64,000 nucleotides of DNA from Candidatus Altiarchaeota archaeon. GTDB taxonomy: Archaea > Altiarchaeota > Altiarchaeia > IMC4 > QMZM01. Position numbers and translations under genes: made by a program. The notes under the pieces are model-generated. The model made no database searches, had not been told where the DNA came from, and was given only the letters and a program-made list of their open reading frames with translations. The DNA lies in NCBI GenBank assembly GCA_038891095.1, contig JAWAEV010000004.1:570-64569 (forward strand), read 5' to 3'. This document shows, one piece after another, positions 2,916-58,875 of this stretch. Position 1 is the stretch's first letter. Every line of letters begins with the position of its first letter.

Positions 2916-3470
2916 TTGGCACTAATTATCGGAATTACAGGAAAAATTGGTGCTGGAAAAACAGCATCCTCTGCGTATATATCTGAAAAATATAACGCTG
3001 CAGTTTATAGATTTTCACAAATTTTACTTGATATATTGCATAGACTCTATTTAGAACCAACAAGAGAAAATTTTCAGAGGATTGGCGCTTGCTTGAGAAA
3101 AGGTATAAATAAGAATGTAATTGTAGATGCACTAAGAAAGGATATTGAAAAAGAAAAATCTGAGATAATTGTGATCGATGGAATTCGCTATTTAAATGAA
3201 GTTCAAATGCTAAGGAAGTTTGATAGAAATGTGCTCCTTGCAGTTGATGCACCACTTGAGTTAAGATACATTAGATGTAAAGAGAGAAATGAAAAAAGCG
3301 AGGAAACAAAAATGACCTTAGAAGAATTTATTGAATCAGAAAGAAGAGAAACTGAGAGAGAACTCTCAACTGTTCTTAAGAAAGCAGATTATTGGATTGA
3401 TAACTCTGGTAGTAGAGAAGAACTTATGAAGAAAATTGATGAAATTCTTATAAATTTACTCAAGGATTAA
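2916..3470 (+). CDS. P-loop nucleotide kinase-like protein (dephospho-CoA kinase / dNMP kinase-like fold)
   Basis: 184 aa. The Walker A motif GITGKIGAGKT sits at the N-terminus, and size and layout fit small nucleotide kinases. The apparent start codon is TTG. Substrate is not assignable by eye. Confidence 0.5.
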   Translation: MALIIGITGKIGAGKTASSAYISEKYNAAVYRFSQILLDILHRLYLEPTRENFQRIGACLRKGINKNVIVDALRKDIEKEKSEIIVIDGIRYLNEVQMLRKFDRNVLLAVDAPLELRYIRCKERNEKSEETKMTLEEFIESERRETERELSTVLKKADYWIDNSGSREELMKKIDEILINLLKD

Positions 3471-4401
3471 TGTAAATTACTTCCAAAAAACTACCTTCTT
3501 TATCTTCAAATGAAAATTCAACATAATTCTCTTTAATATTACAATCTATATCCTTTGGGAGAATTTGAAATGTGCCATCTTGTAATCTTTTCTTCTCTCT
3601 GAGAATTTCTGCAACATCAAACATATGTAAGCCAGAATTCGAAATTTTCTGACTTCCTAATAATATTCCAGATTTAAATTCAACTAAAGGATCTTGTTCA
3701 TTGTATATATAATAGAGATTTATATCCATAGGAGCACTGAGTTTTGAGACATAAAGATAAATACCTGCACCAAGAATTTCAGCTTTATCTGGCAGTTGAC
3801 TTAACTCAAATTTTAAATTAGCTACCCTCTCTTTTTTTCTCCCTTTCATGTTAAGGCATTCATAACCAATATAAAATTTATTACCATTAACATCAAAGCT
3901 ATAAAAAAATTCTTTTTCTAATTGTTCAGAATGTTCTATATAAATTTGCTTTACTTCATAGGGTTTCAAAAACAATTTGTTAATTACCCATTTAATAACG
4001 CTATTACTACTTTTCTCTCCAAATTTGGAATACTCATAGTCAACTTGAATATAAAAAGCAAGACTTGGCTCTGGTGTTAAGATAATAGAGCATAATGTTT
4101 TTTCTTTTGGTAAAATAATCCTGCTATTACATGAAAAATTTTTTATCATAAAGTTTGAAGAAATGTTTCTTATAAGAATTTCATAAGATCCACTATTTTC
4201 TATTATAACCTCTATTAGTGTTTCTCTAACAGAAATTATGGCTTCTCTATCCATTTTTTTTACAGATATGGAGATTAAATTCTCTAACTGCTCTGTTTTA
4301 TTTGATTTCTCAAAACTTAAAAACATAATATATGAGAAAATTAAAAATGCTAAGATGGATAAAGCCAATATAAACTTTTTTTTACTTTCCATATTTTTCA
4401 T
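3460..4401 (-). CDS. Membrane-anchored hypothetical protein, last gene of the pilin-like operon
   Basis: 313 aa with an N-terminal signal anchor (KKKFILALSILAFLIFSYIMFL). Its start overlaps the stop of the Mre11-like gene by 20 nt. No recognisable domain. Confidence 0.5.
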   Translation of the reverse strand: MKNMESKKKFILALSILAFLIFSYIMFLSFEKSNKTEQLENLISISVKKMDREAIISVRETLIEVIIENSGSYEILIRNISSNFMIKNFSCNSRIILPKEKTLCSIILTPEPSLAFYIQVDYEYSKFGEKSSNSVIKWVINKLFLKPYEVKQIYIEHSEQLEKEFFYSFDVNGNKFYIGYECLNMKGRKKERVANLKFELSQLPDKAEILGAGIYLYVSKLSAPMDINLYYIYNEQDPLVEFKSGILLGSQKISNSGLHMFDVAEILREKKRLQDGTFQILPKDIDCNIKENYVEFSFEDKEGSFLEVIYINP

Positions 4402-5497
4402 ACAACTCTAAGCAAACTTTCTTTAATTCTCCTTCATCTTTTAGGCCAGATTTCTCAAAATATTCTTCAATTAACTCTGCACTTAATTCAATTCTCTCTA
4501 TTGTAACTTCCTTTGCCTTGTCAGTTTTTGGGATTATGTTTACATCTAAAATTGTGAAATTTTTATATATCGTTTGCCAATCACGCTTTATCTCAAAAAT
4601 ATCTCCCTTTATTTTAACATCTATATCAATCTGTAAGCATTTTACATCAGAGTTCTCTTCTATCAATTTCTTTATTCTTTCATTTATCTCCTCTGGAGTT
4701 TTCTCCTCATCATAGTACTCTTTTATAACTCTCATTTTTGCAGATCTCACTTCTATAAATTCTGGAGATGAAAAATTTAGATCATGAAAAACAAGAAAAC
4801 CATTTTTATTTTCACTTTCATTGAAACTTATTCGCTCAGTACTTCCAACATAAAACGCAGGTACATCGGAAATTTCTTCAATCTTTTTGTGCTTGTGTAA
4901 ATGCCCGAGAAGAATCAAATCAAATTTTTTTGCAAAAATTTTTATAATTTGCAGGGAAATTTCATGAGGTTCAAGATAATTCTGCAAAGCTTGATGAAGA
5001 CAAAGTATATTAACTATATCTTTTCCTTTTGAACTAATTTCTGAGGAGATTTTTTCGAGAATTTTTTCAGCATTCTCTTTATTGCGAGTGTACTCAAAAC
5101 CATGTATAGAAAATTTTTTTTCATTGATAAGGAAATTTATATGAGGTGTTGTGCTATTTAAAACATAAATGTTGCTATGAATTTCCGAGAAAAAATTTAA
5201 ATATGTTGTATCTAAGCTACCTTCAATTTCGTGATTTCCAATACAAAGAATAACTTTACATTTTTCAGCAATTTTTCGAATTGTTTTTATTGCAAGATGT
5301 AATGTTCTTGCATCTGGCTTTGGGTAATGAAATAAATCTCCAAGAAAAATTACAAGAATTGGATTGAATCGCATTGCTTTTTCTATGGCATCTTTAAATG
5401 CATTTTCATAATCAATTAATCTTTGATGCTTCAATCTATGCCTATAACCTAAATGGCAATCAGATATAACACAAATTTCGTTCATTTTTAAATGCAT
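4382..5497 (-). CDS. mre11: Mre11/SbcD-family metallophosphoesterase (DNA double-strand-break repair nuclease-like)
   Basis: All five calcineurin-like/Mre11 motifs are present in order: SDCHLG, LGDLFH, IGNHE, LCLHQ, LGHLHKH. There is no signal peptide. Start is ATG at 5497 or at 5485, which lies 2 nt after the upstream stop. Confidence 0.8.
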   Translation of the reverse strand: MHLKMNEICVISDCHLGYRHRLKHQRLIDYENAFKDAIEKAMRFNPILVIFLGDLFHYPKPDARTLHLAIKTIRKIAEKCKVILCIGNHEIEGSLDTTYLNFFSEIHSNIYVLNSTTPHINFLINEKKFSIHGFEYTRNKENAEKILEKISSEISSKGKDIVNILCLHQALQNYLEPHEISLQIIKIFAKKFDLILLGHLHKHKKIEEISDVPAFYVGSTERISFNESENKNGFLVFHDLNFSSPEFIEVRSAKMRVIKEYYDEEKTPEEINERIKKLIEENSDVKCLQIDIDVKIKGDIFEIKRDWQTIYKNFTILDVNIIPKTDKAKEVTIERIELSAELIEEYFEKSGLKDEGELKKVCLELYEKYGK

Positions 5498-7512
5498 CTA
5501 CCATCAATGCACTGATTATAACCGCAATAATATGTGGTAGAGTATACATTATTACCTGAGCAATAATACTCTCTTAATCTACTTGAAGTTATGCAATAAT
5601 CATAATAATAAAGACCATATCTTAGTACATAGCCATAAGTATAATAATTCTGACCACCGTCTGAATCATAGCATACTAATGTTGTGGTTGTTGTGCTAAT
5701 TGTAGTTGTTGTGGTTGTCATTGTTGTTGTAGTCGTTGTTGTAAAGCCTCCACAGGAGTTTGGAGGAGCGCACCATGTTGCTAATCCAGAACAAGATTCA
5801 TCGCACCATTCTATTATGTCAGGACCTTCTGGTGGAGGTATATGTATCACTTTGATATTCCACACACAGTTATTGTTTATGCAGTTAACACATGTATCAT
5901 AGGTGCTACATGCTACCATAGTTGTAGTAGTTGTTGCTATCGTCGTAGTTTGTATGGTTGTTGTGCTAATTGTAGTCGTTGTGGTTGTTGTTATTGTTGT
6001 TGTAGTGATTGATGTTGTTGTGGTTGTTGTAGTAGTTGTTGATGTTGTTGTACTGGTTTGTTCTGTAATATTGTATTTCTCCATATGTTGGCAATCTAAT
6101 CTAAACTTATAGCCAAATGTATTGCAAATTCCTTGAATTTCCTCTCCATAAATGTTTTGCCAATATAGATAATCCACCCATGAGGCATTTTCATTTATAG
6201 AAATTTCATGAGAGATTAGTTCATAAATATCGACAATACTCTCAATCCCAATTCTTGTTTCATTAAAAAATTGCTTAGATTGATTTAGATATTTTGATCC
6301 TAAGAAATAATTCCCATCTAATCTATCAAAGAAACTCCCACCTGGTGGGTATCTTTCAGAGCAATTTAAACCATAAGTGTCAATATCGCTAATCCCATAG
6401 CATGATGAGACATTTAACTCTTCTAAGGAAATTCCCCTTAACACAGTATGTTTAGATGGAGAATTTCTAATCCATATACACACACCTTCAGTTAAATTTA
6501 AATCATGAGTGCCATAAACATATGTTGATGTTATATTCGGGTCTCCACCAACATCTTGGTAGTCTATAACCCCAGCAAATTTATCTAGGCATTCCTTTAT
6601 TGTAGGATTGTTAATTAGGCCATATGCTTGATCAAATACAATAATTTTATTCTCTTTATTTGGAACTCCACAAACTTTATCATATAAATTTTCACCACCT
6701 AAATTTGAATATAAAACAGCTGTTCCTGTGCTGGTTCCATTACCGCTCGTTCCATTACCTATGACTCTATTTAGATTTATTGTCATGGAACAATTATAAA
6801 TGTATTTTATAATTTGTGCATTTGTGTTTAGTGGATACAACGGGTCTTCTAAGCCGATGATTGGGGTTATAGAAATAACACTTGTTGGAGTTTCTCTATA
6901 GAAGCACATACCTCTTTCATCTTTCGATGAAATTTCATTTTCAATAATAATTGCAAAATTCCATGCATCTTTTGGAATAACTTTAATTTCTTTAAGGCTC
7001 ATGTTAGTTAAAAAGTGCATTCTCCTACCATGCAATAAAATTCTCTCTATCCATTCCCTCAAAGTGTGGTTTACCATATATGTTACATTCTCTCCGTAGA
7101 GAGTTCCACATAACACAAGTTCTGAAATTGCTGCTTCTGAGCCATTTTCAGTATATATAAAATTTTCGCAGTTAACGCCACACATTTTATTGCAATTAAA
7201 TTTATAATTTTCAAAACCTTGACCTTTTTCAACTACTTGACCTATGGCATAAATTGCTGCTCTTCTGCCAAATATAACAACTGCCCTTTGTAAATCTCTT
7301 TTAACATCTTCAATCCAATAATGTAGTTCTTCACAGCGTATTTTCTCGGACTCGTCTGTTATTTCACTTTTGGATTGGTTCATATAGAAGGAAACTAAGA
7401 GTAGAAGAGGAATTACTAAAAAAGCTATTGCTAATGTAAAAAAAATTCCTTTCTTTACCCTTCTTTCTCTCATTATTAAATTTTTTATTTTTAAATTTAT
7501 TCTATTTTTCAT
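5488..7512 (-). CDS. Secreted pilin-like protein with two poly-Thr linkers, a PSI-like Cys domain and a C-terminal Cys/Tyr-rich domain
   Basis: The class III-like N-terminus is RRVKKG|IFFTLAIAFLVIPLLLL. ATG at 7510-7512 forms an ATGA overlap with the upstream stop (the ORF track extends to a TTG at 7548). The PSI-like domain is at 5746-5916. The C-terminal CYDSDGG...EYYC...C domain is at 5491-5679. Confidence 0.7.
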   Translation of the reverse strand: MKNRINLKIKNLIMRERRVKKGIFFTLAIAFLVIPLLLLVSFYMNQSKSEITDESEKIRCEELHYWIEDVKRDLQRAVVIFGRRAAIYAIGQVVEKGQGFENYKFNCNKMCGVNCENFIYTENGSEAAISELVLCGTLYGENVTYMVNHTLREWIERILLHGRRMHFLTNMSLKEIKVIPKDAWNFAIIIENEISSKDERGMCFYRETPTSVISITPIIGLEDPLYPLNTNAQIIKYIYNCSMTINLNRVIGNGTSGNGTSTGTAVLYSNLGGENLYDKVCGVPNKENKIIVFDQAYGLINNPTIKECLDKFAGVIDYQDVGGDPNITSTYVYGTHDLNLTEGVCIWIRNSPSKHTVLRGISLEELNVSSCYGISDIDTYGLNCSERYPPGGSFFDRLDGNYFLGSKYLNQSKQFFNETRIGIESIVDIYELISHEISINENASWVDYLYWQNIYGEEIQGICNTFGYKFRLDCQHMEKYNITEQTSTTTSTTTTTTTTTSITTTTITTTTTTTISTTTIQTTTIATTTTTMVACSTYDTCVNCINNNCVWNIKVIHIPPPEGPDIIEWCDESCSGLATWCAPPNSCGGFTTTTTTTMTTTTTTISTTTTTLVCYDSDGGQNYYTYGYVLRYGLYYYDYCITSSRLREYYCSGNNVYSTTYYCGYNQCIDGRCI
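5917..6060 (-). repeat. Poly-threonine linker-coding tract (ACN codon run); a second tract lies at 5680-5742
   Basis: It translates to TSTTTSTTTTTTTTTSITTTTITTTTTTTISTTTIQTTTIATTTTT. The antisense strand gives spurious poly-Val ORFs. Confidence 0.9.
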
Positions 7513-10265
7513 TCCCATAAAATTAATTTTAATGTTATTGGCCCCCAAAGTGATCTTACACCGCCTGCTCTTGAAAAGTCAAATATTAGCATATCTGAAT
7601 CAAATTTTATATCTATTTTTCCATTGTTATCAGAATCTAACTTTTCAATTAGTCTATAAACTGCGTCATCCACCGCATCTGTAGTATCAAATGAAATATT
7701 ATTAGAGCTATATACACAGGTGTCATTTCCTAAATAGCTTTCTGGAATTTTTGCTTCAAGATAAGAGTTATCTTCAAATTGAATTTTCCAATTACAGCCT
7801 TCTTTTTCTTGAAATACTGAGCCATAACCAACTTTCCCATCAAGTCTTAATGTGTAAATTGCAATATTATCAGCTGAACAACCAGTATCTTCTTCAGGGG
7901 AGTTCCCTGTTCTTATTTCAAAATAGTTTGTTCTGCCAGGAATTAAATTTTGTTGTGGATTTGGAATCTGAACTATAAATGGATCTCCTAAAATTAGGTA
8001 ATTATCACCAAAACTACCATCTCTTAAGCTATAAAATGTAAGTCCATTAACTCTTAAGAGATCTGTCCAATATTCTCCAGAATATGAGGTTAATTTAGCA
8101 TCAACAACTCTTGCATATTCTGTAATAAAAATATTTCCTGTACAATTCTCAGTGTTATTAAATCTTTCAGTATTTTGTGTTATTGTTATTTCACCATAAG
8201 CTGAAAGATTTGCTACGGGAGTATAAGAAAATTTTATATATGACTCAGGATATAAAATCATTTTTGTTAAATTTCCAACAACAGAAGCACTTTGTGCTTT
8301 ATAGCTGATATTAACTATTTGTTGTGCAATTTCTCTATAAATATTTTTTAATTCTGTTGCATTCGTACTTGAATAATATGCTCCGCCTCCACATAGAGCA
8401 ATTTGTCTTAAAGTTGAATTTCCTATAGGACAACTTCCTACTGGTCCAAAGCCAATAGCATATATAGTTGCATTTAGAACATTGTGCGCTTTACAAGAAT
8501 CATTTATTGCATCATTCTTAGCTTTCTCACTAACATAATCACCACATTGATAAGATAAACAACCTCCGCCTAAGCAAAACCAATCTGTTGGGCATGTGTA
8601 TGGAATACAACCAATAGTTGAATTTTCATCTATTGGAGAGCATTGAACATTTGCTAAGCCGTCAGTCATAACAATTATAAATTTTTGTCTTGAAGTATTG
8701 CTTTGTTGTTGTAAAATTTTTCTTGCTTGTCTTATTGCGCCACAAATCCCTGTTGCTCCTTGAGCATAATAGTTATTTACTTGTGTTTTCAGTGAAATTT
8801 TATTTGTACTTAAATCATGGTATGATCTTATCATTGTTGATGATTCAGTTGGAATTGAAGCAGGAATACCAGAATATGCAACCAAACCAACTCTATTTCC
8901 TGTGGTGTTTAAAATAATATCAATAAATTCGTTATCAAGACATTTTGCCAATGAAATTCTCTTTGTTGATGATGAATAAAGCAAAGGATCATTGCAATTT
9001 CTCTCTATTCCTGTGGCTGAGCTATCTAATCTCCAGTTCATACTCCCTGAGACATCTGTTATAAGGATAACATCAGCATTTCCTGTTGCATTTACAACAA
9101 AATTTAGATCATCTATGCCAAGTCTTAATGGCACCGTTATAAGACTTAAATCGTTATAATCAAGCATCGTTAAATTAGAGTCATAAAGATGATACTCTTG
9201 CGTAAAATTTTTTCCAGAGCTTTGAAAGACTTTCACATCGCCAAAATTCAAATAAGTTGTAAAGTTATTTAAAAATTTTAAGTAAATTTCAATTGAGTTT
9301 AAATACCCAGGAACATAAAAAGAGGAGTAGAGATTTATTAAGCCTTCTATCCCTGGGAATTGATAATAAGTTACTCCCTCCTCTTTTTCTGTTTCCATTT
9401 CAGATGTGTTATAAGTAACCTTCATAAAACCTCCACCAATATAACTCTCTTCTATACCGCCAAGAAAATTAATTTTTATTGTATTTTCGCCCGCATGGAA
9501 ATATAAATTTGGTGTTGGCAAATAACTTTGAATGTTAGCACTCATATTTCTCCCTGATGGTATGAAAGTCCCATAATCATGATCATTAACATAGAGTTTA
9601 AATCCTCCTCCGGAGGCCATCTCAATATACGCCCTTTTCACAGAACTCAAAGTTGATGGTAAAGTTATAATTTTTGTTAAATTTCCTTGACCTTCAAAAC
9701 CACCAAAATAAACATATTTTGAGGTTTCTTTCTCTCTTATCTTTGAAAGAAATGCTCTTGCAACATGGCCTCTTGTTGGCAAGCCAGCACCATAACCAAC
9801 TAAAAGTCTTGTTGAATGTGTTTCAGAAGTTGCATCTTTTCTTTTAGGTCTTTTACTTTTATTTAAATTTTCTGAACTACAAAAGGGAATTTCATCTATT
9901 GTCACTTCATAGCCAACATTTTCTGGCAATAATTTTTCAAGATATCCTTGCAAGAGAATGCTTGCATTTTGCCAGTGTGTTGAATTTATACTATAATTTG
10001 CATAGGCCCATTCCTCTCCAATAATATCAAGGACATTTGCTTTATTTAGAACATCTAAGATATCTTCAGATGTGTAATGCAACTTCTTAAATTCAGTCGC
10101 TGAAGTTTTTGCAATTTTTGAGTGAGTAAGTCCATAGTAGATAGTGAAAATTGCTAAAACAAAAATTAAAGCAATGAATGCGTCTAATATTACTGCAAGT
10201 CCTTTATTCCCGAAATTCATAAATTTAAAAATTTTTATTAGTCTTCCAAACATTTTACTTAGCAT
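7509..10265 (-). CDS. Pilin-like von Willebrand factor A (vWA) domain adhesin
   Basis: 918 aa. The N-terminus is NKG|LAVILDAFIALIFVLAIF. The vWA domain spans about 8316-9077 with MIDAS residues DVSGS...GATG...MTDG. A Cys-rich insert follows (QCSPIDENSTIGCIPYTCPTDWFCLGGGCLSYQC). N-x-S/T sequons are numerous. Confidence 0.8.
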   Translation of the reverse strand: MLSKMFGRLIKIFKFMNFGNKGLAVILDAFIALIFVLAIFTIYYGLTHSKIAKTSATEFKKLHYTSEDILDVLNKANVLDIIGEEWAYANYSINSTHWQNASILLQGYLEKLLPENVGYEVTIDEIPFCSSENLNKSKRPKRKDATSETHSTRLLVGYGAGLPTRGHVARAFLSKIREKETSKYVYFGGFEGQGNLTKIITLPSTLSSVKRAYIEMASGGGFKLYVNDHDYGTFIPSGRNMSANIQSYLPTPNLYFHAGENTIKINFLGGIEESYIGGGFMKVTYNTSEMETEKEEGVTYYQFPGIEGLINLYSSFYVPGYLNSIEIYLKFLNNFTTYLNFGDVKVFQSSGKNFTQEYHLYDSNLTMLDYNDLSLITVPLRLGIDDLNFVVNATGNADVILITDVSGSMNWRLDSSATGIERNCNDPLLYSSSTKRISLAKCLDNEFIDIILNTTGNRVGLVAYSGIPASIPTESSTMIRSYHDLSTNKISLKTQVNNYYAQGATGICGAIRQARKILQQQSNTSRQKFIIVMTDGLANVQCSPIDENSTIGCIPYTCPTDWFCLGGGCLSYQCGDYVSEKAKNDAINDSCKAHNVLNATIYAIGFGPVGSCPIGNSTLRQIALCGGGAYYSSTNATELKNIYREIAQQIVNISYKAQSASVVGNLTKMILYPESYIKFSYTPVANLSAYGEITITQNTERFNNTENCTGNIFITEYARVVDAKLTSYSGEYWTDLLRVNGLTFYSLRDGSFGDNYLILGDPFIVQIPNPQQNLIPGRTNYFEIRTGNSPEEDTGCSADNIAIYTLRLDGKVGYGSVFQEKEGCNWKIQFEDNSYLEAKIPESYLGNDTCVYSSNNISFDTTDAVDDAVYRLIEKLDSDNNGKIDIKFDSDMLIFDFSRAGGVRSLWGPITLKLILWE

Positions 10266-11209
10266 TGGCTTAAATTGTATTTACAAACATGTGCTAATTG
10301 TGAGCATGATGATGCGCACCATTCAAATTCTTCCCATGATGGTGGTCCCCCAACCCTAAAGTTCCACACACAACCAGCGGTTGTGCAATCTTCACAGCTG
10401 TAGTAAGTGTCGCAGGGCAGTGTCGTAGTTGTTATTGTAACTGTAGTCGAAGTTGTAGTACTTGTCTTTGTAGTAGTAGTTGTTGTGGTTGATGTAGTTG
10501 TTGTTGTAGTTGTTACTGGTGCGGTAGTAGTTGTCGTAGTAGTTGTCATAGTTGTTGTTGTCATAGCAGTAGTTATTGTGGTTGCTGTTGTCGTAGTTGT
10601 TGTTATTGCATTAGTAATAACCTCCTCTTCTTCACCATACCACACAGTCAAAATTATTCTAACTATCATTTCATTTAATAATGCTGTTCTTTTTATTGTT
10701 ATCATTTCTATAGGTAAATAGGGTTTTTTTCCAGTAGCGCAGCTTATATTTTCCAGAATAATTGTCGTGCCATTTATATCAGTTAAGTTAAAATAAAAGT
10801 TGTACTTCCCTATGCCAAGTAAATTTGCCCTTTCTTCATAACTTGTGTTCATGATTTTAATAAAACTTAAAATTTTTTCTTTTTGTAAAATTCTTGGTTC
10901 GTTAGCAAATGTTAAACCAATACTTAAAATTTTTTCCTCTGTTTCATTTTGCCAATTAGTTGGAGTTCCAGGTGTTTTTACTAACTTTTCTCCTAAGTCG
11001 ATAGCAACTTCTTCCATTGCATAAAATCTTTCAGAGTTTTTTATTTCAGTTATCGTTGTTGTCCATAGAAAAAAAACAATCACAATGGCTAAGGAGAAAA
11101 TCATATAAGCTAAGAGTGTCTCAGAGCTGAAAACCTGTGCTAAATCCTTAATTTTTTTATCTAACAAAAATTGTCGCATTGTAATAATTGTTGCTTTCAA
11201 TACTCTCAT
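10259..11209 (-). CDS. Pilin-like protein with a poly-Thr stalk and a C-terminal PSI-like Cys domain
   Basis: 316 aa. The N-terminus is KDLAQVFSSETLLAYMIFSLAIVIVFFLW, a class III-like Q-x-x-S-x-E motif followed by a hydrophobic helix. The poly-Thr stalk is at 10421-10612. The domain CDTYYSCEDCTTAGCVWN...EWCASSCSQLAHVC is at 10262-10420. Confidence 0.7.
   Translation of the reverse strand: MRVLKATIITMRQFLLDKKIKDLAQVFSSETLLAYMIFSLAIVIVFFLWTTTITEIKNSERFYAMEEVAIDLGEKLVKTPGTPTNWQNETEEKILSIGLTFANEPRILQKEKILSFIKIMNTSYEERANLLGIGKYNFYFNLTDINGTTIILENISCATGKKPYLPIEMITIKRTALLNEMIVRIILTVWYGEEEEVITNAITTTTTTATTITTAMTTTTMTTTTTTTTAPVTTTTTTTSTTTTTTTKTSTTTSTTVTITTTTLPCDTYYSCEDCTTAGCVWNFRVGGPPSWEEFEWCASSCSQLAHVCKYNLSQC
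10421..10612 (-). repeat. Poly-threonine linker-coding tract
   Basis: About 64 codons, nearly all Thr (ACN), with occasional A/M/S/V/K. An antisense poly-Val ORF lies at 10407..10721. Confidence 0.9.
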
Positions 11210-11882
11210 CTATATCATCATTTGGATCTAATATTATACTCACTGTGTAATTTCCTGATGTTAGAGGAGCAGTATAATTAACAAAAATTTTAGTTGCTTC
11301 ATCTATACCTAGAGAATTTACTACCAATTCTTGAGAATTGAACAAAACTTTAAATTGTTCTGCTTTCACAAGTCCAATATTTTTTATCCATACAGATAAA
11401 TTTACTTTTTCACCTGAATTAACTTCTGTTGGATATAATTTATCCTTCAAGATAATTAATTCTGGTTTGTAGCATATTACTATGACACTTTCATTATCAT
11501 TCAAAATTTTATTTTCTTTATACTCATCTTTATCTATACAATAAATTGTGACATTTGATGTAACTATCGCTAAGGAGTAAGGACTTAATTTTGAATCCCA
11601 AGAAATTTCAACTCTATTACTATAAACTGAAAGATTGTAATCAAAATTTTTATATAGCTTTGCAGGTAATTTAAATTTTTTGTAGTAGGAATTTCCTTGA
11701 GTTGAGATTGTATCTATGTTCATCGCAAATTTTCTGCAAATTCTCTTTGCATCAATCCAGGATTTTATATCATTGCTCTCTCGTAAATATTCATTTGCAA
11801 CAATCAGAAAGATTAGAAAAATTAAGGAGAGGAAAACTATACCTGTAATTAATTCCATGCTTGTTTGTGCTTTTTTAGTCAT
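11157..11882 (-). CDS. Class III signal peptide (archaeal type IV pilin-like) protein with a C-terminal CARDB-like domain
   Basis: 241 aa. The N-terminus MTKKAQTSMELITGIVFLSLIFLIFLI fits the archaeal prepilin motif [KR][GA]Q-x-S-x-E. The C-terminus (NLSVWIKNIGLVKAEQFKV...ILDPNDDIDESIESNN) resembles CARDB. Confidence 0.75.
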   Translation of the reverse strand: MTKKAQTSMELITGIVFLSLIFLIFLIVANEYLRESNDIKSWIDAKRICRKFAMNIDTISTQGNSYYKKFKLPAKLYKNFDYNLSVYSNRVEISWDSKLSPYSLAIVTSNVTIYCIDKDEYKENKILNDNESVIVICYKPELIILKDKLYPTEVNSGEKVNLSVWIKNIGLVKAEQFKVLFNSQELVVNSLGIDEATKIFVNYTAPLTSGNYTVSIILDPNDDIDESIESNNYYNATIFVR

Positions 11883-11984
11883 GTCCCAATTGGATAAAAA
11901 TTAAGTAAAATTTATCATGCAATAAATTATTAGAACATGAAATAAAAAATTTCTCTAATGGCAAGCAATTGGAACATCAGTAAG

Positions 11985-14894
11985 TTAAAAGGTAGTTGTT
12001 ATGGTAGTTGTTATATTACTTATTGTCAAATTCTCAACAAATTCATCAGGATATTTTATCTTATAAACTTTAACATAACCTAAATATGAATTATCAAGCT
12101 TATCACCTAAAAAACCATCAACTAATTCAAAATGCTCGCTTTTTTCTATATTTTCTGCTAAACCAAACTTCTTATATTCATCTAAGTGATCTGCTAAGTA
12201 TAGCTTAGTCATCATATAATCCTCAAATTTTTTTGGAACATAAATTAAATTTGTAAAAGTTGGAAATCCAATATACTTGTCTGTGTTATAATTCAAAGCA
12301 TTTCCAAGGATGTTATTCAATGATTGAACACCTAAGATTGCTCCACCATGTTCTTTTTGCCATAATTCCCATTTTATTGGAGTATCTAAACCTATTGAGC
12401 CTTGTTTCAATACAAAAGGATAGACCTTTATTGAAGAAAGCGCCTTATTTTTTATCTCAAATTCTATTGCTCCGATATAGTCCTTATATCCTCCTGATAA
12501 ACTGCAAAAGAATACAACTTTCTGCACTAAATCAAATGTACCCTCAGTATTTGGCATTGGTCTTGCTTTCAGAATGCTGTTCTCAGGATTAAAGCTACAT
12601 TGTGCATAGCCCTCTTTCTTACCTTCTCTATTTGGTGCATCTAATGGAGCAGTTACATTTGATGTTGCTATAAAGTGTGGGGCAGCGCTCTTGCCTATCA
12701 TGGTCCAATCTATGATGACATGAGTAGCATTATACTTTTTTGCAACTTCTAAAGCTTCTGTTTCATTTTCAATTAGAACATGGAATTTTGCAATATCTTG
12801 TACCATTAGTGCATCACCTTTTACATTATCTAATATACTTTTTCTTTCAGCAACTGCTGTAATAATATGCCCATAGTCCCACCATGTCAAAATTTCAGTT
12901 TTTTCTTTGTCAGTATTTTCTCTAAGCCATTGTAATGTTGGATTCCAAAAGAGTGCTTCTACATTATAGCCATAATACATCGGTTTTTCTCCTCCAAATG
13001 AACCTAAGAGAAAAACAGAGTTGTTAACAAAAGGTAGGAGCAATATTAAAGCAAAAAACATTATACTTGGCACAATCCTCAAACTTTCGAAATCTTTTAA
13101 TTTTATTGCTAAAATTAAGCCAATTGTTGAGCCTAATGAGATAATAGGCACACTTGCAGCAAATTGAAATTGAGCTTTATTTATAACGCCCCAGAGCAAT
13201 GGTAAGGATAGAGCCAAAATAAAAGTTGTGCCGAAATTTTTTTTCTTTAGTATTGCATAATATAAAAGCACAGGTATCATACCTAAGCCAAATAATGCTG
13301 ATATCCCAAATGTATTATAAAGTTTGTTCACACATCCAAAATCAATAGCATCACATAGAGGGGTCTGCTCTGCAGTTGTTTGTGGTATAATAGCCTTTGT
13401 TCTTGCTGCTTTTATAGTATCCAAAACATAATTTACTGCTTTTGGAAAGGAAATACCAAAATTTAATTTAGGATTAATAGAAGGAGTTAACAGAATTAGA
13501 ATAGCAAATAAAGTTATCAATGCAGATATTGACTTTGAATTTCTATTAAGATAGTTCTGTAATTTCTCTTCAAAATTTTTGCCTTCTTTTTCAAAGTTTC
13601 TCTCCTCTCTATGGAGTAAAACAATGCTCAAGAATTCAAGTATAAAAGGAATAAAAATTGCAGAGCCTATTGATATCATTTCTTGTAAGGGTAAAGTTGA
13701 AAATTCTGGCATTTGACCTTGAGGATGTAAAATAAATGGATGGAGTTGGCTTATAAAGAAAAAAATGAAAATGTAAGGAACTATCTCTATACAATTTTTT
13801 CCATGTATAAAATTAAAAATTGAATATAACACTCCAAAAATTCCAAGGACAACTACTGCATAACCATATCCGCTCCAAGTTAAATTTAACATCAAAAATG
13901 AAAAACCAGCAATTATCGCTAAGAGAAAACTTTTCCTCCTGAATGAAAATATAAACAAGAAAAATGATGCTGTAAAGAAGAACATCCCTAAGGAGTCATC
14001 CTCAGAATTAGTTGCGATTGCTTTTGCTCCATATGCAGGAGCAAAAATTAGCATAAGTGCTGCTAAAAATGCTGCAATTTTATTATATGGGGAAAAATCA
14101 GAGAAGAGCTCTTTTATTAGTAGATATAGCACAACTGAAGTGAATGCAGAAACAACTCCAGGAAAAAGAATTGCTAAATCCAAGGTTGTTAACCCAAAAT
14201 TTTTGAGAACTATTGTAAAAGCACCAATTGATAAAGAATTCATTAATCTAAAACCACCAAATGACATAAATTTCCCTGGATATACCATAGTCTCATGTTC
14301 TGGCAGATAGTTATTATTAACTAAAAAATTTGCATGTCTATAGTAATAGTAAGGATCTGTAATCTCCGCAAGGAATTTACCAGCAACCAAACTTGCAGGA
14401 TGGTTTGGCCAATTGTAAGAGAGTGCAGGTACTAAGTGGATAACAAGACTGGAAAGAAAAATTGCTATAACTACAGCAGTTTCTATAGTGGTGATATCAT
14501 GCAATGCAATTGCATAAAGCAAAAGAAAAATTCCAAAAATTATAGAAAATGCAGTATTATCTCTTGCTATAAAATATGAACTTTGTGTGGCTTGTAATGA
14601 AAAAAACACAATAAGAAATATAATGATAGGGATACCAAATAAGTAATAATTTTTCTTGCCTGATCTAAAATATAGATAGATGAAATAAATTGAAATAAAT
14701 GCTAACAGCACCTTTATTACTATAAATAAAACAGAAAAATCAGTAGGAACAAATCCTCTAAAAAAAGCCATAAGAGATACTACAACTGAAATTCCAAGTA
14801 GTGGGTCCTCAAAATGTTTTGCAATTTTTTCAGTTAATGTTATTCCTTTTTCTTCCTTTACTGTTTCTTTCTTTCTACTCATCTTAACCCCCAA
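11985..14894 (-). CDS. aglB: Archaeal oligosaccharyltransferase AglB (STT3 family)
   Basis: 969 aa. A multi-pass TM N-terminal half is followed by the catalytic WWDYGH motif (ILTWWDYGHIIT). Size is typical of long AglB proteins. Confidence 0.9.
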   Translation of the reverse strand: MGVKMSRKKETVKEEKGITLTEKIAKHFEDPLLGISVVVSLMAFFRGFVPTDFSVLFIVIKVLLAFISIYFIYLYFRSGKKNYYLFGIPIIIFLIVFFSLQATQSSYFIARDNTAFSIIFGIFLLLYAIALHDITTIETAVVIAIFLSSLVIHLVPALSYNWPNHPASLVAGKFLAEITDPYYYYRHANFLVNNNYLPEHETMVYPGKFMSFGGFRLMNSLSIGAFTIVLKNFGLTTLDLAILFPGVVSAFTSVVLYLLIKELFSDFSPYNKIAAFLAALMLIFAPAYGAKAIATNSEDDSLGMFFFTASFFLFIFSFRRKSFLLAIIAGFSFLMLNLTWSGYGYAVVVLGIFGVLYSIFNFIHGKNCIEIVPYIFIFFFISQLHPFILHPQGQMPEFSTLPLQEMISIGSAIFIPFILEFLSIVLLHREERNFEKEGKNFEEKLQNYLNRNSKSISALITLFAILILLTPSINPKLNFGISFPKAVNYVLDTIKAARTKAIIPQTTAEQTPLCDAIDFGCVNKLYNTFGISALFGLGMIPVLLYYAILKKKNFGTTFILALSLPLLWGVINKAQFQFAASVPIISLGSTIGLILAIKLKDFESLRIVPSIMFFALILLLPFVNNSVFLLGSFGGEKPMYYGYNVEALFWNPTLQWLRENTDKEKTEILTWWDYGHIITAVAERKSILDNVKGDALMVQDIAKFHVLIENETEALEVAKKYNATHVIIDWTMIGKSAAPHFIATSNVTAPLDAPNREGKKEGYAQCSFNPENSILKARPMPNTEGTFDLVQKVVFFCSLSGGYKDYIGAIEFEIKNKALSSIKVYPFVLKQGSIGLDTPIKWELWQKEHGGAILGVQSLNNILGNALNYNTDKYIGFPTFTNLIYVPKKFEDYMMTKLYLADHLDEYKKFGLAENIEKSEHFELVDGFLGDKLDNSYLGYVKVYKIKYPDEFVENLTISNITTTITTTF

Positions 14895-15576
14895 ATCTTC
14901 TTTCTCTTGAGTTAAAATCTTTAACTATGCTAACTAAATCCTCCTTTTCAAATTCTTGCCACAATTTTGGCACAAAATAAATTTCAGAATATGCCCCTTG
15001 AAACAAAAGAAAATTGCTAAGCCTTTTCTCCGCTGTTCTTATAATGATATCTGGATATGATGCTACCCATAAATTCTTTCTTAAATTTTCCTCATTTAGT
15101 TCTTCTCCAGATGAGAGAACTTTGTTTGCTGCATTTAATATCTCTCTTCTACCCCCATATGCAATTGCAAGATTTAAAATAGCTTTATTGTAATTTTTTG
15201 TTCTTTCTTCAAGTTCTCTTAGACTTCTAATAACTTTCTTTCTGAGAGTAATATCTGAAATTCTATCTGAAAGAAATTTTAAATCACCACAAATTTTTAC
15301 TTTCACCTCATTTGCTTTAAGTTTTCCATTTTCTATAACCTCAATGGCTTGTTTTGCAAATAAACTTAACAGTGTGTTAATCTCCTCTTTACTTCTATTC
15401 TCAATATTTTCTGTTGAGAGTGCATATATCGTCACTTCATCAATATCAAGTTCAATACACCAGCCAAGAAAATCATAAAATTTTTTTATCCCGCTCATAT
15501 AAGATTTCTTTAGATCTAGAATACCTTTTTTTTGCATATACCTTCTATTGCCATCAGGGATAACTGCTATATGCAT
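14884..15576 (-). CDS. uppS: Undecaprenyl/tritrans,polycis-polyprenyl diphosphate synthase (cis-prenyltransferase)
   Basis: The motif MHIAVIPDGNRRY sits at the N-terminus, with RLSNFLLFQ and ERRFGG near the C-terminus. I chose the internal ATG (15574-15576). The 83-codon upstream extension in the track is not UppS-like and would collide with the nob1 promoter. Confidence 0.9.
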   Translation of the reverse strand: MHIAVIPDGNRRYMQKKGILDLKKSYMSGIKKFYDFLGWCIELDIDEVTIYALSTENIENRSKEEINTLLSLFAKQAIEVIENGKLKANEVKVKICGDLKFLSDRISDITLRKKVIRSLRELEERTKNYNKAILNLAIAYGGRREILNAANKVLSSGEELNEENLRKNLWVASYPDIIIRTAEKRLSNFLLFQGAYSEIYFVPKLWQEFEKEDLVSIVKDFNSRERRFGG

Positions 15577-15662
15577 TTTTACTTTGTAATTAAATTGAAT
15601 TACATATGTTATCAATATATTAAATCCTAAATAAATATACCTCAAAGTAAAAAAATTAAAAA

Positions 15663-16145
15663 ATGGAAATTTTAGATGCTTCTTATATTTTACATTCAAA
15701 TTTGGATTTTTCTTCTGGGAATTATGTGACCACAAATTCTGTACTCTTGGAAATAAACAATGAGAATGCTCGCGTAAGTGTTGAGAGTGCGCTAAAAAAG
15801 GGCATGATAAAAATTCAAGAGCCAAAAAAGGAATTTATAGAAAAGGTGCAAAAGGAAGCTGAAAAAACCGGTGATTTAGAGTGTTTATCAAATGCAGATA
15901 TTGAAATTCTTGCATTAGCACTTGAAACAAAATACAAAATTTTGACTGATGATTATGCTATACAAAATGTTGCAGCTTCTCTTGGATTAAAATATGAAAA
16001 ATTTATTCAGAGAGGAATAAAAAAAAGGCTGAAATGGATAAAAATTTGCGAAGGTTGCAAAAGAAGATACTCCTCAAATACATCTGAAAATTTTTGCAGT
16101 TTTTGTGGTTCATTACTGAAGAAAATTCCCATAACCTCTAAGTAG
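15663..16145 (+). CDS. nob1: Nob1-like endonuclease (PIN domain plus C-terminal zinc ribbon)
   Basis: 160 aa. PIN-like acidic residues are present (LDAS..., NADIEILALA, LTDDYAIQNVA), followed by CEGC...CSFCG. This is the archaeal Nob1 architecture. Confidence 0.7.
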   Translation: MEILDASYILHSNLDFSSGNYVTTNSVLLEINNENARVSVESALKKGMIKIQEPKKEFIEKVQKEAEKTGDLECLSNADIEILALALETKYKILTDDYAIQNVAASLGLKYEKFIQRGIKKRLKWIKICEGCKRRYSSNTSENFCSFCGSLLKKIPITSK

Positions 16146-17303
16146 TAGATAAATTGCTAATGCTTCTGGAATTTTTGTTACGCCCTCAAAGAAAGGGCCA
16201 ACTTTTCCGTGATAAAAATCAAACTCAGGAATTTTTTGTAATATCTGAATTTTTACATTTTCGTTGCTAAATGCAATTGCATCTTCTAATGGATTGAATT
16301 TATCTATATCTGAAATTTTTTTTGCAATTAAGCCAGAATTTCCGTGTAAGCTTTCGGGCAGTCTTATAAGTCTTGATGTATCTATTGTGACCATCTTATC
16401 TGTGTCTCTTAGAGAGAGAGTTTTAATTGCCTTTTCCATAACTATCTCCTGAATTAACTTTGAACTTATTTTTTCATCCTTTGGAATTCTATATTTTATA
16501 TTCGGGTCTTGAGTAATTTTTTTTGATCGATCTGACATCTCAAAATTTATGGCAATTCCATTTAATGAATCATAAAATCCATTTTCAAGTTCGGTGAGGA
16601 TTCTTTCTCTGTTTGCAATTAAAAATTCAGCTTTTTTCTCACCAATTTTAGGAATGCTCTTAAATTGTTTTTTATCAGAATTTTTTATAAAATTATATAG
16701 ACCATAAAAAACTCTTCCTTTCCATCCAGTATCTGTTTTTTTTGGACCTCTTATTGAAACTCCATCAGAATACCAAAAAACATTAAAGTCAACATGTCCT
16801 AAGAGATAATCAATAATTTCACTTCTCTCATCACTCCCAAGTTTTTTTACTTTTTCTGAAAAAACATGCACATGATAACCTTTGCTTCCTGAAAAGTTAA
16901 TTGAAATTTCCTGTTGTGAAAAACCAAAATCATTCAAAAGAAAATCTCTAAGGTTAAGAACCTCATTCTTAGCAATTTTTAATTTTTCCTCATCAAAAAA
17001 ATCCATAGAGATGTCTAAATCAAAGATTAGATCAGCATACAAAAAATTTTTAGCACTCATCGGTTCATTACTTGGAAATTCATAATAAGCACTTGAATAA
17101 GAAATGAAAAATGGAGCTTCTCTTCTCAGATAATTTTGTAGTTCAATTTCATTAGAAAAGGATTTATGCCTTATTTGAATTTTCTTTTCTAATGTGCCTA
17201 TGCCAAATTCTCTCTTTTCGATTTCTCTTGGTGCAGGAATTTTCTCTTTTGAGTAATACTCCTGAAATTTTTTCTTTAAGTATATCCTAGTGTTTATATC
17301 CAT
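16113..17303 (-). CDS. priS: DNA primase small (catalytic) subunit PriS
   Basis: 396 aa. The motif DLIFDLDI is followed by FSGSKGYHVHVF, the archaeo-eukaryotic primase catalytic signature, and later RLPESLH. Confidence 0.85.
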   Translation of the reverse strand: MDINTRIYLKKKFQEYYSKEKIPAPREIEKREFGIGTLEKKIQIRHKSFSNEIELQNYLRREAPFFISYSSAYYEFPSNEPMSAKNFLYADLIFDLDISMDFFDEEKLKIAKNEVLNLRDFLLNDFGFSQQEISINFSGSKGYHVHVFSEKVKKLGSDERSEIIDYLLGHVDFNVFWYSDGVSIRGPKKTDTGWKGRVFYGLYNFIKNSDKKQFKSIPKIGEKKAEFLIANRERILTELENGFYDSLNGIAINFEMSDRSKKITQDPNIKYRIPKDEKISSKLIQEIVMEKAIKTLSLRDTDKMVTIDTSRLIRLPESLHGNSGLIAKKISDIDKFNPLEDAIAFSNENVKIQILQKIPEFDFYHGKVGPFFEGVTKIPEALAIYLLLRGYGNFLQ

Positions 17304-24072: not shown

Positions 24073-24606
24073 TTATTCCGATGAGCAGTCTTCGCATATT
24101 AATCTACCCTCAACTGGCTGTAAATTTTCAGAGTAATTACCACAAACTTCACAGATTCCAGATACTGTTCCAGTTATTGTTGTAATGTCAGAAATGTCAA
24201 ATTTTGAATGTTCGCTTATGAGAACATGCATTGCTGGCTCTATTCTGACTAAATCAAACTCTGTGAGAATTCCAATAATGTTATCACCTTGCTTTACAAC
24301 AAGCCTTCTTATGTTTTTGTCACGCATTATTTTTGCTGCTGCATCAATATCAACATGTGGTGCTACTGTTATCAATGGCGATGTCATAACTTCTGCTGCT
24401 GTGATAGTGTTTGGATTCTTACCCTCAGCAACAATTTTATTTATTATATCCCTATCAGTTATCATTCCTAAGCCATGTTTTTTGTCTATTACTATAACTG
24501 AGTCAATGTCATTGTTTTTCATTATTTCTGCGACTCTCTTGATATTTTCATTTGGGCGGACGTATATTACTCCTTTGGTCATGACATCCCCAACTCTTAA
24601 CTCCAT
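24073..24606 (-). CDS. CBS-pair domain protein with a C-terminal zinc ribbon
   Basis: 177 aa. It has two CBS repeats (VGDVMTKGVIYV...GMITDRDI and VMTSPLITV...GILTEFDL) followed by CEVCG...CEDC. Confidence 0.8.
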   Translation of the reverse strand: MELRVGDVMTKGVIYVRPNENIKRVAEIMKNNDIDSVIVIDKKHGLGMITDRDIINKIVAEGKNPNTITAAEVMTSPLITVAPHVDIDAAAKIMRDKNIRRLVVKQGDNIIGILTEFDLVRIEPAMHVLISEHSKFDISDITTITGTVSGICEVCGNYSENLQPVEGRLICEDCSSE

Positions 24607-42748: not shown

Positions 42749-43462
42749 ATGGTAAATTTAAATGAAAGATGTCCAAGTGGAATTCCTGGCTTGGATGAAT
42801 TAATTGAAGGAGGCTATCCCCGTGGCAGAACAATTCTAATTTCAGGAACTTGTGGAACTGGTAAAACTACATTCGCAGTTCAATTTCTATATGCAGGAGT
42901 TAAAGATTATAACGAGAATGGAATAATGGTAACTTTGGAGCAAACACCAGAAGAGCTAAGAAGAGATATGCTCAAATATGGTATGGATTTAGAAAAATAT
43001 GAAAAACAAGGTAAATTGTTGCTCTTAGATCAAGACAAAGTATCATATGACTTTGGAAGCATTACAGATATGCTTATAACAAAAGCCCAAGAAATAAATG
43101 CAAAACGTGCAGTTGTTGATTCATTAGGAGCAATGGATTTTGCTTCAGGCGGAAAATATGACATGAGAAAAACTCTATTCAACTTAAACAAAATGTTAAA
43201 AGATTCTGGACTTACTACATTATTTGTCTCTGAAATTTCTCGTGGCTCAGAAGAAATTTCGACTCATGGTGTTGAAAGCTATCTGATGGATGGCGTTATC
43301 ATTCTCACATTACATGAAGCTTTGGATTCAAGAAAAATTGAAATAAGAAAGATGCGAGCAACAAAACACTCAATAAAAAGCAGAGAATTTGAATTTACCG
43401 ATAGAGGCATAGTTATCATAGAGAAAGAAGAAAATAAGCCTAAGAAGGCCATATTTCTTTAG
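42749..43462 (+). CDS. Single-domain KaiC/RecA-superfamily ATPase
   Basis: 237 aa with GIPGLDELIEGGYPRGRTILISGTCGTGKTTF (Walker A) and RAVVDSL (Walker B). This is a KaiC/RadA-like layout. Confidence 0.8.
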   Translation: MVNLNERCPSGIPGLDELIEGGYPRGRTILISGTCGTGKTTFAVQFLYAGVKDYNENGIMVTLEQTPEELRRDMLKYGMDLEKYEKQGKLLLLDQDKVSYDFGSITDMLITKAQEINAKRAVVDSLGAMDFASGGKYDMRKTLFNLNKMLKDSGLTTLFVSEISRGSEEISTHGVESYLMDGVIILTLHEALDSRKIEIRKMRATKHSIKSREFEFTDRGIVIIEKEENKPKKAIFL

Positions 43463-58211: not shown

Positions 58212-58529
58212 TCAGATAACAATCCCTTCTTTTATAGCTTCACTCACAATTGTAACCCCCTTGGAAAGTTTTTCAAATTCCTCAGGAGTGTAGCACAGAA
58301 AATCTACTGGAAGATTTAAAGTCCAGTAGTTATACATTTTTGCTCCTCTCTGAAAGAAATCAAGTTTTCTGAATTTCGGGCTAACAATGATTAAGTCTAC
58401 ATCGCTGTCTCTCCTTGATTTACTATGAACTCTGCTTCCGAATAGTATTAACCTCTCTATAGGAATATCCTTACTTAGTCTTTCTTTAAACTCCTTCAAT
58501 TTCTCAATTATATGTTCTCTTCCGCCCAT
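58212..58529 (-). CDS. Minimal nucleotidyltransferase (MNT), partner of the HEPN gene
   Basis: 105 aa with the motif LFGSRVHSKSRRDSDVDLIIV (GS-x9-10-D-x-D). Its start overlaps the HEPN reading frame by about 22 nt. Confidence 0.8.
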   Translation of the reverse strand: MGGREHIIEKLKEFKERLSKDIPIERLILFGSRVHSKSRRDSDVDLIIVSPKFRKLDFFQRGAKMYNYWTLNLPVDFLCYTPEEFEKLSKGVTIVSEAIKEGIVI

Positions 58530-58875
58530 TTCAATGCTTCTGCTGATAATTCTAAAAAATAAGATACTTTCTTCCTTAAATCCACATTATCTTCTAGTTG
58601 TATTCCAGGATAGCGTGAATATATATAAGCCATAGTCAATTCCTTTACATTCTCAAGAAGCGTTTCTGGAATTTTTATACTTTTGCCCAGTTCTACAAGG
58701 TCATGTATCTTTCTCAGTTTACCAGTTTTTTGATTGATACAGCCCTAAATGCTTTCTCAACAGCTTGTTGACAATAAAAAGCCGCAGCTTTATATTTCTT
58801 ATTTTTATATAAAATATTAGCCGTCTCCAAATCTTCAACTGCTTGTTTCAGCCATGTCTCAACTTCATTAGTCAT
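58508..58875 (-). pseudogene. HEPN-domain gene interrupted by a frameshift in an A6 run
   Basis: The N-terminal part (58714-58875) reads MTNEVETWLKQAVEDLETANILYKNKKYKAAAFYCQQAVEKAF.... The C-terminal part, in another frame (58508-58713), reads RKIHDLVELGK...YIYSRYPG...LSAEALKWAEENI. Adding one A to the minus-strand AAAAAA at 58725-58730 restores ...SIKKTGKLRKIHDL.... Confidence 0.75.

Follow-up and report, generated by a model that had tools for sequence, protein, structure and literature searches.

Minor pilins that carry a von Willebrand factor A (vWA) domain are known at the tips of bacterial pili, as exemplified by TadG/CpaL and PilB (PMC11870444, PMC12918778, PMC8179133). The Tad pili are thought to descend from an archaeal ancestor (PMC11870444, PMC12918778), and the published census of modular pilins covers bacteria only (PMC8179133). 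In archaea, the type IV filaments (TFFs) of clade 1, or System 1, which include the Epd pilus of Methanococcus maripaludis, have been reported in methanogens, Thermococcales and DPANN (PMC4858521; bioRxiv 10.64898/2026.04.22.720090). Here we describe four adjacent minus-strand genes, g1 to g4 (5488-11882), in a 64,000-nucleotide (nt) stretch of DNA from Candidatus Altiarchaeota archaeon (GenBank GCA_038891095.1, JAWAEV010000004.1). This whole stretch is referred to as the window, and coordinates are those of the window unless a relative's locus is named. With a probability of about 75%, we read g1-g4 as encoding the minor pilins or tip adhesins of an archaeal TFF, because their N-termini are conserved, the genes are linked in relatives to T2SSE and T2SSF genes and to a canonical pilin, g3 combines pilin and vWA modules in a model whose nearest solved structure is PilB, and the genes are under purifying selection. 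A preliminary description of this DNA had put forward such a complex, and for g1-g4 this evidence supports the proposal.

Like TadE/TadF/TadG (CpaJ/CpaK/CpaL) of the Tad (type IVc) pili, the module combines small minor pilins with one large minor-pilin-like vWA protein, g3, whose metal-ion-dependent adhesion site (MIDAS) is intact, and the loci of relatives encode one FlaI/TadA-type ATPase with two separate TadB/TadC-like platform proteins. However, g1-g4 gave no Pfam or NCBIfam match to the TadE or TadG N-terminal families, g3 has approximately 260 extra C-terminal residues, and the archaeal set additionally includes the large g4 protein, which lacks a solved analogue. The vWA domain of CpaL is split by inserted beta domains and its MIDAS begins at residue 160 (PMC11870444), whereas in g3 a beta-sandwich (amino acids (aa) 179-394) precedes an unsplit vWA domain (397-655). 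Given the missing family match and the different domain topology, the membership of g3 in TadG is not supported. The Streptococcus sanguinis PilB is similar in its order of modules, with the pilin module ahead of a vWA adhesion module that contains a MIDAS, and it provides the concept of presentation at the tip (PMC8179133). Unlike PilB, with which it shares 13-16% identity, g3 is twice as long and has three further beta domains, and the leader and the +1 to +6 motif of its family are of the archaeal type (KG/xxF[ST]LDA). In the type IVa pili, a priming tip complex of four minor pilins (FimU-PilVWX) also presents a large vWA adhesin, PilY1 (PMC7541494, PMC5979040), but PilY1 is not a pilin and docks via a beta-propeller, whereas g3 itself has a pilin-like N-terminus and lacks the PilY1 C-terminal domain.

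The machinery in the relatives' loci resembles that of clade 1 or System 1, with its single ATPase, two platform genes and many class III minor pilins; in L008, L046 and other relatives, a T2SSE gene is followed by two T2SSF genes and accompanied by four to five class III-like genes. Large adhesin-like proteins and a Q at +1 in the small pilins are further common features. In contrast, the large proteins of clade 1 carry DUF2341, which was not detected in g3 or g4, and the pilin that accompanies the relatives' loci is ~150 aa long with a globular domain, rather than of the ~70-aa Epd type. A DUF2341/PilY-like identity for g3 or g4 was rejected, as no match appeared even at E-values up to 10. 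The System 1 membership of the relatives' machinery is putative, with the two platform genes found and the DUF2341 adhesins not found. The two surveys of archaeal filaments (PMC4858521; bioRxiv 10.64898/2026.04.22.720090) make no mention of vWA-bearing class III proteins. The earlier remark that this composition was not recognised from described archaeal pili therefore holds for the vWA protein and not for the machinery, the class of which was already catalogued as clade 1 or System 1. What is new is an archaeal modular vWA pilin set that is conserved in both Altiarchaeota and DPANN and that, in the window, has become uncoupled from its motor; the assembly machine itself is not new.

Gene layout, N-termini and domains of g1-g4

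Six abutting or overlapping open reading frames (ORFs), g1 to g6, occupy 3460-11882 on the minus strand, and all of the junctions given in the preliminary description (11157/11209, 10259/10265, 7509-7512, 5488/5497 and 4382/4401) were reproduced. The first, g1 (11157-11882), encodes a small pilin-like protein of 241 aa with a class III-type N-terminus (MTKKA/QTSME) and a C-terminal CARDB domain. It is followed by g2 (10259-11209; pilin-like, 316 aa, ...KDLA/QVFSSE), g3 (7509-10265; a large modular pilin-like adhesin of 918 aa, NKG/LAVILD) and g4 (5488-7548; large and pilin-like, RRVKKG/IFFTLAIAF), the product of which has 686 aa, or 674 aa from the ATG at 7512. The N-termini of orthologues favour shorter leaders, with probable starts at M11 (11179) for g2 and M16 (10220) for g3, and at M13 (7512) or M26 (7473) for g4. 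The ATG at M13 overlaps the g3 stop codon as ATGA; with the orthologue-type starts (M26 for g4), gaps of 38 nt between g2 and g3 and 35 nt between g3 and g4 replace the overlaps. Since the overlaps depend on the choice of start codon, translational coupling is uncertain at these two junctions, and of the translationally coupled operon proposed earlier, the tight packing stands, while strict coupling is not established at every junction. The ORFs are real genes, because orthologues exist and the ratio of nonsynonymous to synonymous substitutions (dN/dS) is 0.09-0.20 for g1, g3 and g4 (g1, 0.18-0.20; g3, 0.09-0.13). An NCBI Candidatus Altiarchaeota metagenome-assembled genome (MAG) contains an annotated g4 copy of 99% identity. 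The window has ~31% GC and archaeal gene content, including PriS and, from N-termini read by eye, a proteasome subunit, exosome subunits, PolB and aIF5B.

Each family was aligned on its hydrophobic segment, and its members were scored for [KR][GAS] followed by such a segment. Each of the four families shows a short basic leader, G or A (sometimes S) at -1 and approximately 20 hydrophobic residues, with its own residues at +1 to +6: [KR][GAS]Q/xSxE[FY] in the small pilins including g1, [KR][GA]Q/[VI][WF]Sx[DE] in the g2-like proteins, [KR][KR][GA]/xxF[ST][LI]DA in the vWA proteins and [KR][KR]G/xx[FY][TS][LI], without an acidic residue, in the g4-like proteins. The motif was found in 72 of 78 vWA proteins (an acidic residue at +6 in 67), 55/67 g2-like proteins (Q at +1 in 50, acidic at +6 in 49), 79/96 g1-like proteins (Q at +1 in 69, acidic at +5 in 68) and 62 of 71 g4-like proteins, the last with no further conserved position. 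For comparison, 66 of 251 other ORFs with an N-terminal hydrophobic segment carry the motif, mostly without the acidic residue. The class III-like N-termini that had been quoted for the first four products are all present, and their motif is conserved in all four orthologous families. When a strict FlaFind-like pattern, our own reconstruction and not the original tool, was applied to the window, g1 (KKA/QTSME) and g3 (NKG/LAVILD) passed, g4 (KKG/IFFTL) passed a loose version and g2 did not pass. Neither g5, which has no signal sequence, nor g6 (KKKFILALS...), which has no G or A before its hydrophobic segment, qualified.

All of the modules that the preliminary description had assigned to these 241-918-aa proteins, namely CARDB, vWA with an intact MIDAS, poly-Thr and Cys-rich segments, are present. 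In g1, CARDB spans aa 139-235 (11178-11468; Pfam E-value 4.6e-14). In the g2 protein, a conserved core of ~170 aa is followed by a poly-Thr stalk at aa 201-263 and then by a Cys-rich, PSI-like knob at aa 264-316. This knob of ~55 aa is common to g2 and g4, and the g4 copy gave a weak PSI/plexin-repeat match (E-value 0.012); no significant Pfam family was found for g2, g4 or g6.

The g3 protein matches Pfam VWA_2/VWA (VWA_2 E-value 5.5e-8) over aa 397-655 (8301-9077), with the MIDAS motif DVSGS at aa 404-408 (9042-9056), and a comparison of 18 orthologues shows no variation in the MIDAS residues D404, S406, S408, T505 and D535. An AlphaFold2 model, likewise based on 18 orthologues (mean predicted local distance difference test score (pLDDT) 74), shows an alpha1 helix (aa 22-75), a small alpha/beta pilin-like module up to approximately aa 165, a galactose-binding-like beta-sandwich (aa 179-394) with weak BetaGal_ABD2 similarity and, on the C-terminal side, beta domains ending in a conserved strand (...GPITLKLILWE). 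The top Foldseek match of this model in the PDB was the bimodular vWA pilin PilB of S. sanguinis (7BA2/7B7P, E-value 2e-12), and the pilus tip adhesins PitA, SpaC, Mfa5 and RrgA were among the other leading matches. Residues 860-885 of g3 (~7610-7690) form an EF-hand or dockerin-like loop, DSDNNGKIDIKFD, with a sub-threshold Pfam EF-hand match (E-value 0.06), which may be a calcium site.

In g4, a helix of ~95 residues leads into a head of ~390 aa (to aa 484), followed by a poly-Thr tract (aa 486-534), the PSI-like knob, a second poly-Thr tract (aa 591-611) and a second Cys-rich knob. In a model built with 29 orthologues, the helix spans aa 2-96 and the pLDDT is mostly >90 over aa 20-484, and a Foldseek search of the PDB with it returned nothing better than an E-value of 0.03, the matches being NTF2-like fragments. 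Among g4 orthologues, the head is conserved and the C-terminal modules vary (Big_7, InhA-type, or poly-Thr/Cys). In L008 (8601-9254 of that locus) and also in L004, the vWA gene and the g4 homologue are separated by a free-standing gene whose ~217-aa product combines an N-terminal hydrophobic segment with a poly-Thr tract and a Cys-rich domain. The occurrence of the poly-Thr/Cys module as a free-standing gene in these relatives, as opposed to its fusion to the C-termini of g2 and g4 in the window, points to module shuffling.

The four proteins contain 1.9-2.9 N-x-S/T sequons per 100 aa, versus 0.1-0.3 in the cytoplasmic proteins of the window. Directly upstream of g1 on the same strand are genes for the oligosaccharyltransferase AglB/STT3 (11985-14894) and the prenyltransferase UppS (14884-15825). 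The sequon density together with the adjoining AglB gene fits g1-g4 as extracellular glycoproteins. AglB, usually with UppS, is directly upstream of the module in several Altiarchaeota (L003, L004, L008, L019, L074, L081 and L083) but not in other DPANN, and this adjacency suggests a dedicated or co-regulated N-glycosylation of the sequon-rich module proteins. In L081 (a 69% relative), a restriction-modification pair of an N6_N4_Mtase and a Tsp45I-like endonuclease is inserted between AglB and the g1 homologue (6383-8323 of that locus).

Linkage to filament machinery in relatives

Hundreds of full-length homologues of g3 exist, and a scan of species-representative genomes confirmed relatives of its family at 456 places, so that the family spans at least 456 species genomes of Altiarchaeota and DPANN. 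From these, we took 79 loci of Altiarchaeota, Aenigmatarchaeota, Woesearchaeota, Pacearchaeota and Nanoarchaeota, called their ORFs and clustered them. The recurrent gene order is pilin, pilin, g2-like, vWA, g4-like, DUF2226, T2SSE, T2SSF, T2SSF, pilin. The small pilins are ~135 and ~128 aa, the g2-like protein is ~170 aa, the vWA protein ~900 aa and the g4-like protein at least 320 aa, and the order ends with one or two ~150-aa pilins (N-terminus KGQ/AAMEFLMTYGWA) and sometimes KaiC. The identities of the DUF2226, T2SSE and two T2SSF genes were confirmed by Pfam. The linkage was quantified in those 32 loci that extend for 8 kb or more to each side of the vWA gene, where the T2SSE ATPase was present in 30, two T2SSF genes in 29, DUF2226 in 29, the ~150-aa pilin in 20 and KaiC in 9. 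Immediately around the vWA gene, the g2-like gene is directly upstream in 57 of 77 loci, and a g4-like gene lies within 1.5 kb downstream in 64 of 77. The order in Altiarchaeota (L004, L008 and L074) is AglB, g1 with CARDB, g2, g3, g4, DUF2226, ATPase, T2SSF, T2SSF, sometimes with a free-standing poly-Thr/Cys protein between g3 and g4. Gene order in relatives had been named earlier as a check on the array, and it is conserved for the g1-g4 module, together with the linked pilus machinery, and not for g5 and g6. The nearest solved structures of the relatives' ATPase are Archaeoglobus fulgidus GspE (2OAP, E-value 1e-71), FlaI and CpaF (E-value 4e-51), and a literature search found no paper on DUF2226. 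The window itself contains a stand-alone KaiC-like ATPase (42749-43462, plus strand; Pfam KaiC E-value 4.5e-67) of the same family as the KaiC genes of the pilus loci.

In the lineage of the window (the window, L085, L083/84 and L081), the DUF2226, ATPase and T2SSF genes are gone from the position after g4, while a 64% relative (L082) retains DUF2226 and the ATPase there. In the L082 locus (10001-17230), the module has shrunk to the vWA gene, the g4-like gene, DUF2226 and the ATPase, with no g1 or g2 homologue upstream and no T2SSF downstream. Judging from these gene contents, the cluster is fragmenting in the Altiarchaeota subclade of L082. In a sister MAG with a 63%-identical g3, a different contig carries the ATPase together with two T2SSF genes, whereas a query with the ATPase of the 64% relative yielded no match assignable to the window's own MAG or sample. 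In M. maripaludis, a minor-pilin operon is also located apart from the ATPase and platform genes (PMC3875500). Between the window and an 88% relative, the dN/dS was 0.13 for g3 and 0.115 for g4 at dS values of 0.6-1.2, and hence these two genes are under purifying selection and are not decaying despite the loss of the adjacent motor. As for DUF2226, queries of the window matched only the ORF at 24073-24606, which by eye looks like a putative CBS-domain protein and was dismissed.

A second TFF-like locus occupies 60075-63471. It contains three minus-strand pilin-like genes, at 60075-60518 (147 aa, KGQ/AGPLGED...), 60777-61274 (165 aa, KRG/IETSPFF...) and 61261-61458, the last of which encodes a short pilin of 65 aa, KKG/IETKVLVFVLAAIIL (starting KKG/IETKVLVFVL...), essentially without a globular domain. 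On the plus strand, a polytopic protein of 641 aa (61546-63471) is weakly TadC/T2SSF-like (hmmsearch E-value 1e-6, hhalign probability 72%). The platform-like gene that had been noticed ~50 kb from the module is therefore present as an ORF, but its similarity to TadC is only weak. Since both the window and the public contig end just past this ORF, no ATPase is visible for the second locus. This locus is a possible source of partner machinery for g1-g4.

Interpretation of g1-g4 and alternatives

In a TFF, each of g1-g4 would be synthesised with a class III-type signal, and an archaeal prepilin peptidase would cut it after G or A, leaving the protein in the membrane through its hydrophobic alpha1 helix. 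The four proteins would associate via their alpha1 helices to give an initiation complex, which would come to lie at the distal pilus tip as a FlaI/TadA-type ATPase on a TadC-type platform polymerises the filament. The tip would then show the CARDB domain of g1, the PSI-like Cys knobs of g2 and g4 on their poly-Thr stalks, and the galactose-binding-like sandwich and MIDAS-containing vWA domain of g3. Ligands would be bound via the MIDAS, CARDB, the lectin-like sandwich and the Cys knobs, and g1-g4 would probably be N-glycosylated by the adjoining AglB.

Several observations weigh against this interpretation. Searches of the 64-kb window with tblastn and family hidden Markov models (HMMs) detected neither a T2SSE ATPase nor the cognate pair of T2SSF genes, and a prepilin peptidase was not recognised in the window or in the relatives' loci by a simple motif search (G[GAS]GD[VIALFM][KR]), which is a weak test; the preliminary description had reported no assembly ATPase, platform protein or prepilin peptidase at the module, and across the whole 64 kb only the weakly TadC-like ORF of 641 aa scored. 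At the N-termini, g2 (DLA/QVFSSE) has L instead of K or R at -2 and for this reason fails the strict pattern, while retaining the A followed by Q and the E at +6; the g4-type proteins have no acidic residue; only approximately one-third to one-half of the family members fit the strict FlaFind-like pattern; and the sole match to Pfam Class_IIIsignal was sub-threshold, in the small pilin of one relative (E-value 0.013).

One alternative is that g1-g4 are uncleaved type II (signal-anchor) membrane proteins that form a surface adhesion complex outside any filament. In its favour, no ATPase or peptidase was recognised in the window, g2 and g4 depart from the strict class III pattern, and adhesins anchored in the envelope typically also have big poly-Thr stalks with knobs. 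This explanation is quite unlikely, as hundreds of orthologues keep the G or A at -1 and an acidic residue at +5/+6, the module in relatives is nearly always linked to T2SSE and two T2SSF genes, and g3 finds its closest structural match in a true pilin. Alternatively, the proteins might be assembled into a short pseudopilus or bindosome-like structure, as in the type II secretion system or the Sulfolobus bindosome, with the binding domains near the envelope and not at the tip of a long pilus. A wide distribution in archaea has been proposed for binding proteins with class III signals by which TFF machineries are functionalised (bioRxiv 10.64898/2026.04.22.720090), the window contains no major pilin of the ~150-aa type found with the module elsewhere, and g3 has a galactose-binding-like domain. 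We consider this arrangement unlikely too, since that canonical major pilin accompanies the module in 20 of the 32 well-flanked loci and the five-protein set resembles the tip-initiation complexes of true pili (PMC12918778). Because of the taxon, the hami, the grappling hooks of Altiarchaeum, were also considered; their subunits are described as S-layer-like, and g1-g4 have pilin-type N-termini and TFF linkage.

A further alternative is that all six genes act as one unit, for example as a DNA-uptake pilus with a nuclease that processes the incoming DNA. The gene that invites this idea is g5 (4382-5497, minus strand), which encodes a cytoplasmic Mre11-family phosphoesterase of 371 aa (Pfam Metallophos E-value 2e-14). 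Its nearest NCBIfam models are those of archaeal Mre11, although its 81 bits against Mre11_Sulfo are far under the equivalog cut-off of 500, and its best solved relatives are archaeal Mre11 proteins (Methanocaldococcus jannaschii 3AUZ, E-value 8e-18); the ORFs of the window include no Rad50/SbcC-like ORF beside it. The product of g6 (3460-4401, minus strand; 313 aa) is N-terminally anchored or secreted, has no assigned function and gave only sub-threshold CBM96/DNRLRE matches. The six genes abut or overlap on the same strand, and type IV filaments mediate DNA uptake in bacteria. However, g4 is directly followed by the Mre11-like gene in just two cases, the window and the 88% relative (L085), and g5 carries no signal sequence. 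In none of the 79 species loci is a homologue of g5 or g6 present within 10 kb of the vWA gene, except for one g6-like ORF, a 27% relative in L074 that is located elsewhere in that locus and not beside the module. In the 72% relative (L083), the Mre11-like gene is next to PriS on the opposite strand, at a distance of ~9 kb on the other side. The genes after g4 in the 69% relative (L081) are unrelated and lie on the opposite strand. The order in relatives, TopA(-), AAA_18(+), Mre11(-), PriS(+)...g4(+), compares with PriS...g4, Mre11, g6, AAA_18, TopA in the window. Since the orders of L081 and L083 differ from that of the window by one simple inversion of the PriS-to-g4 block, the adjacency is recent and accidental, and g5 and g6 are probably co-transcribed passengers that the inversion brought beside g4. 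The six-gene functional operon implied by the preliminary description was therefore discarded, and a joint function of all six genes, in DNA uptake or otherwise, is highly improbable.

As a tip set of a TFF, the module could also have a place in the history of the Tad pili. Tentatively, and as a possibility that falls clearly short of being probable, g1-g4 (with a g2-g3-g4 core across DPANN) might be the archaeal counterpart, and possibly the ancestor, of the Tad TadE/F/G(CpaL) tip complex, so that the Epd/Tad-lineage filament would already have possessed a vWA minor pilin by the time it was transferred to bacteria. The set would serve ultrasmall archaea as a swappable, glycosylated tip for attachment to hosts or surfaces, and the window module, uncoupled from its motor, may use the locus at 60-63.5 kb with its 65-aa pilin and fused platform-like protein.

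The attachment of DPANN and Altiarchaeota to hosts and surfaces is poorly understood, and the module is a concrete, widely conserved candidate for it: a putative tip set of five proteins (four in Altiarchaeota), with a MIDAS-containing vWA adhesin and adhesion modules that vary between lineages. Such a set would extend the modular-pilin principle from bacteria to Archaea. It would also allow TadG/CpaL to be compared with an archaeal protein, a comparison of relevance to the archaeal origin proposed for Tad pili. The head of g4 adds a confidently predicted fold without a solved analogue.

Other loci of the window

Downstream of g6, a convergent AAA_18 kinase-like gene is followed by the gene for topoisomerase I. 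Further secreted or surface proteins are encoded elsewhere in the window. Two tandem paralogous genes on the plus strand (17374-19731 and 19773-22403) encode secreted proteins of 785 and 876 aa with NosD/right-handed beta-helix repeats, Cys-rich N-termini and 4.7 and 3.4 sequons per 100 aa, respectively. A giant surface protein of 2080 aa with CARDB and a thrombospondin type 3 repeat is encoded at 48350-54592 on the minus strand, and two geranylgeranyl-reductase-like genes come after it on the same strand. At 58212-58529 and 58714-58905, also on the minus strand, an MNT-type nucleotidyltransferase and a HEPN gene form a toxin-antitoxin-like pair, in which the HEPN ORF of 63 aa may be truncated.

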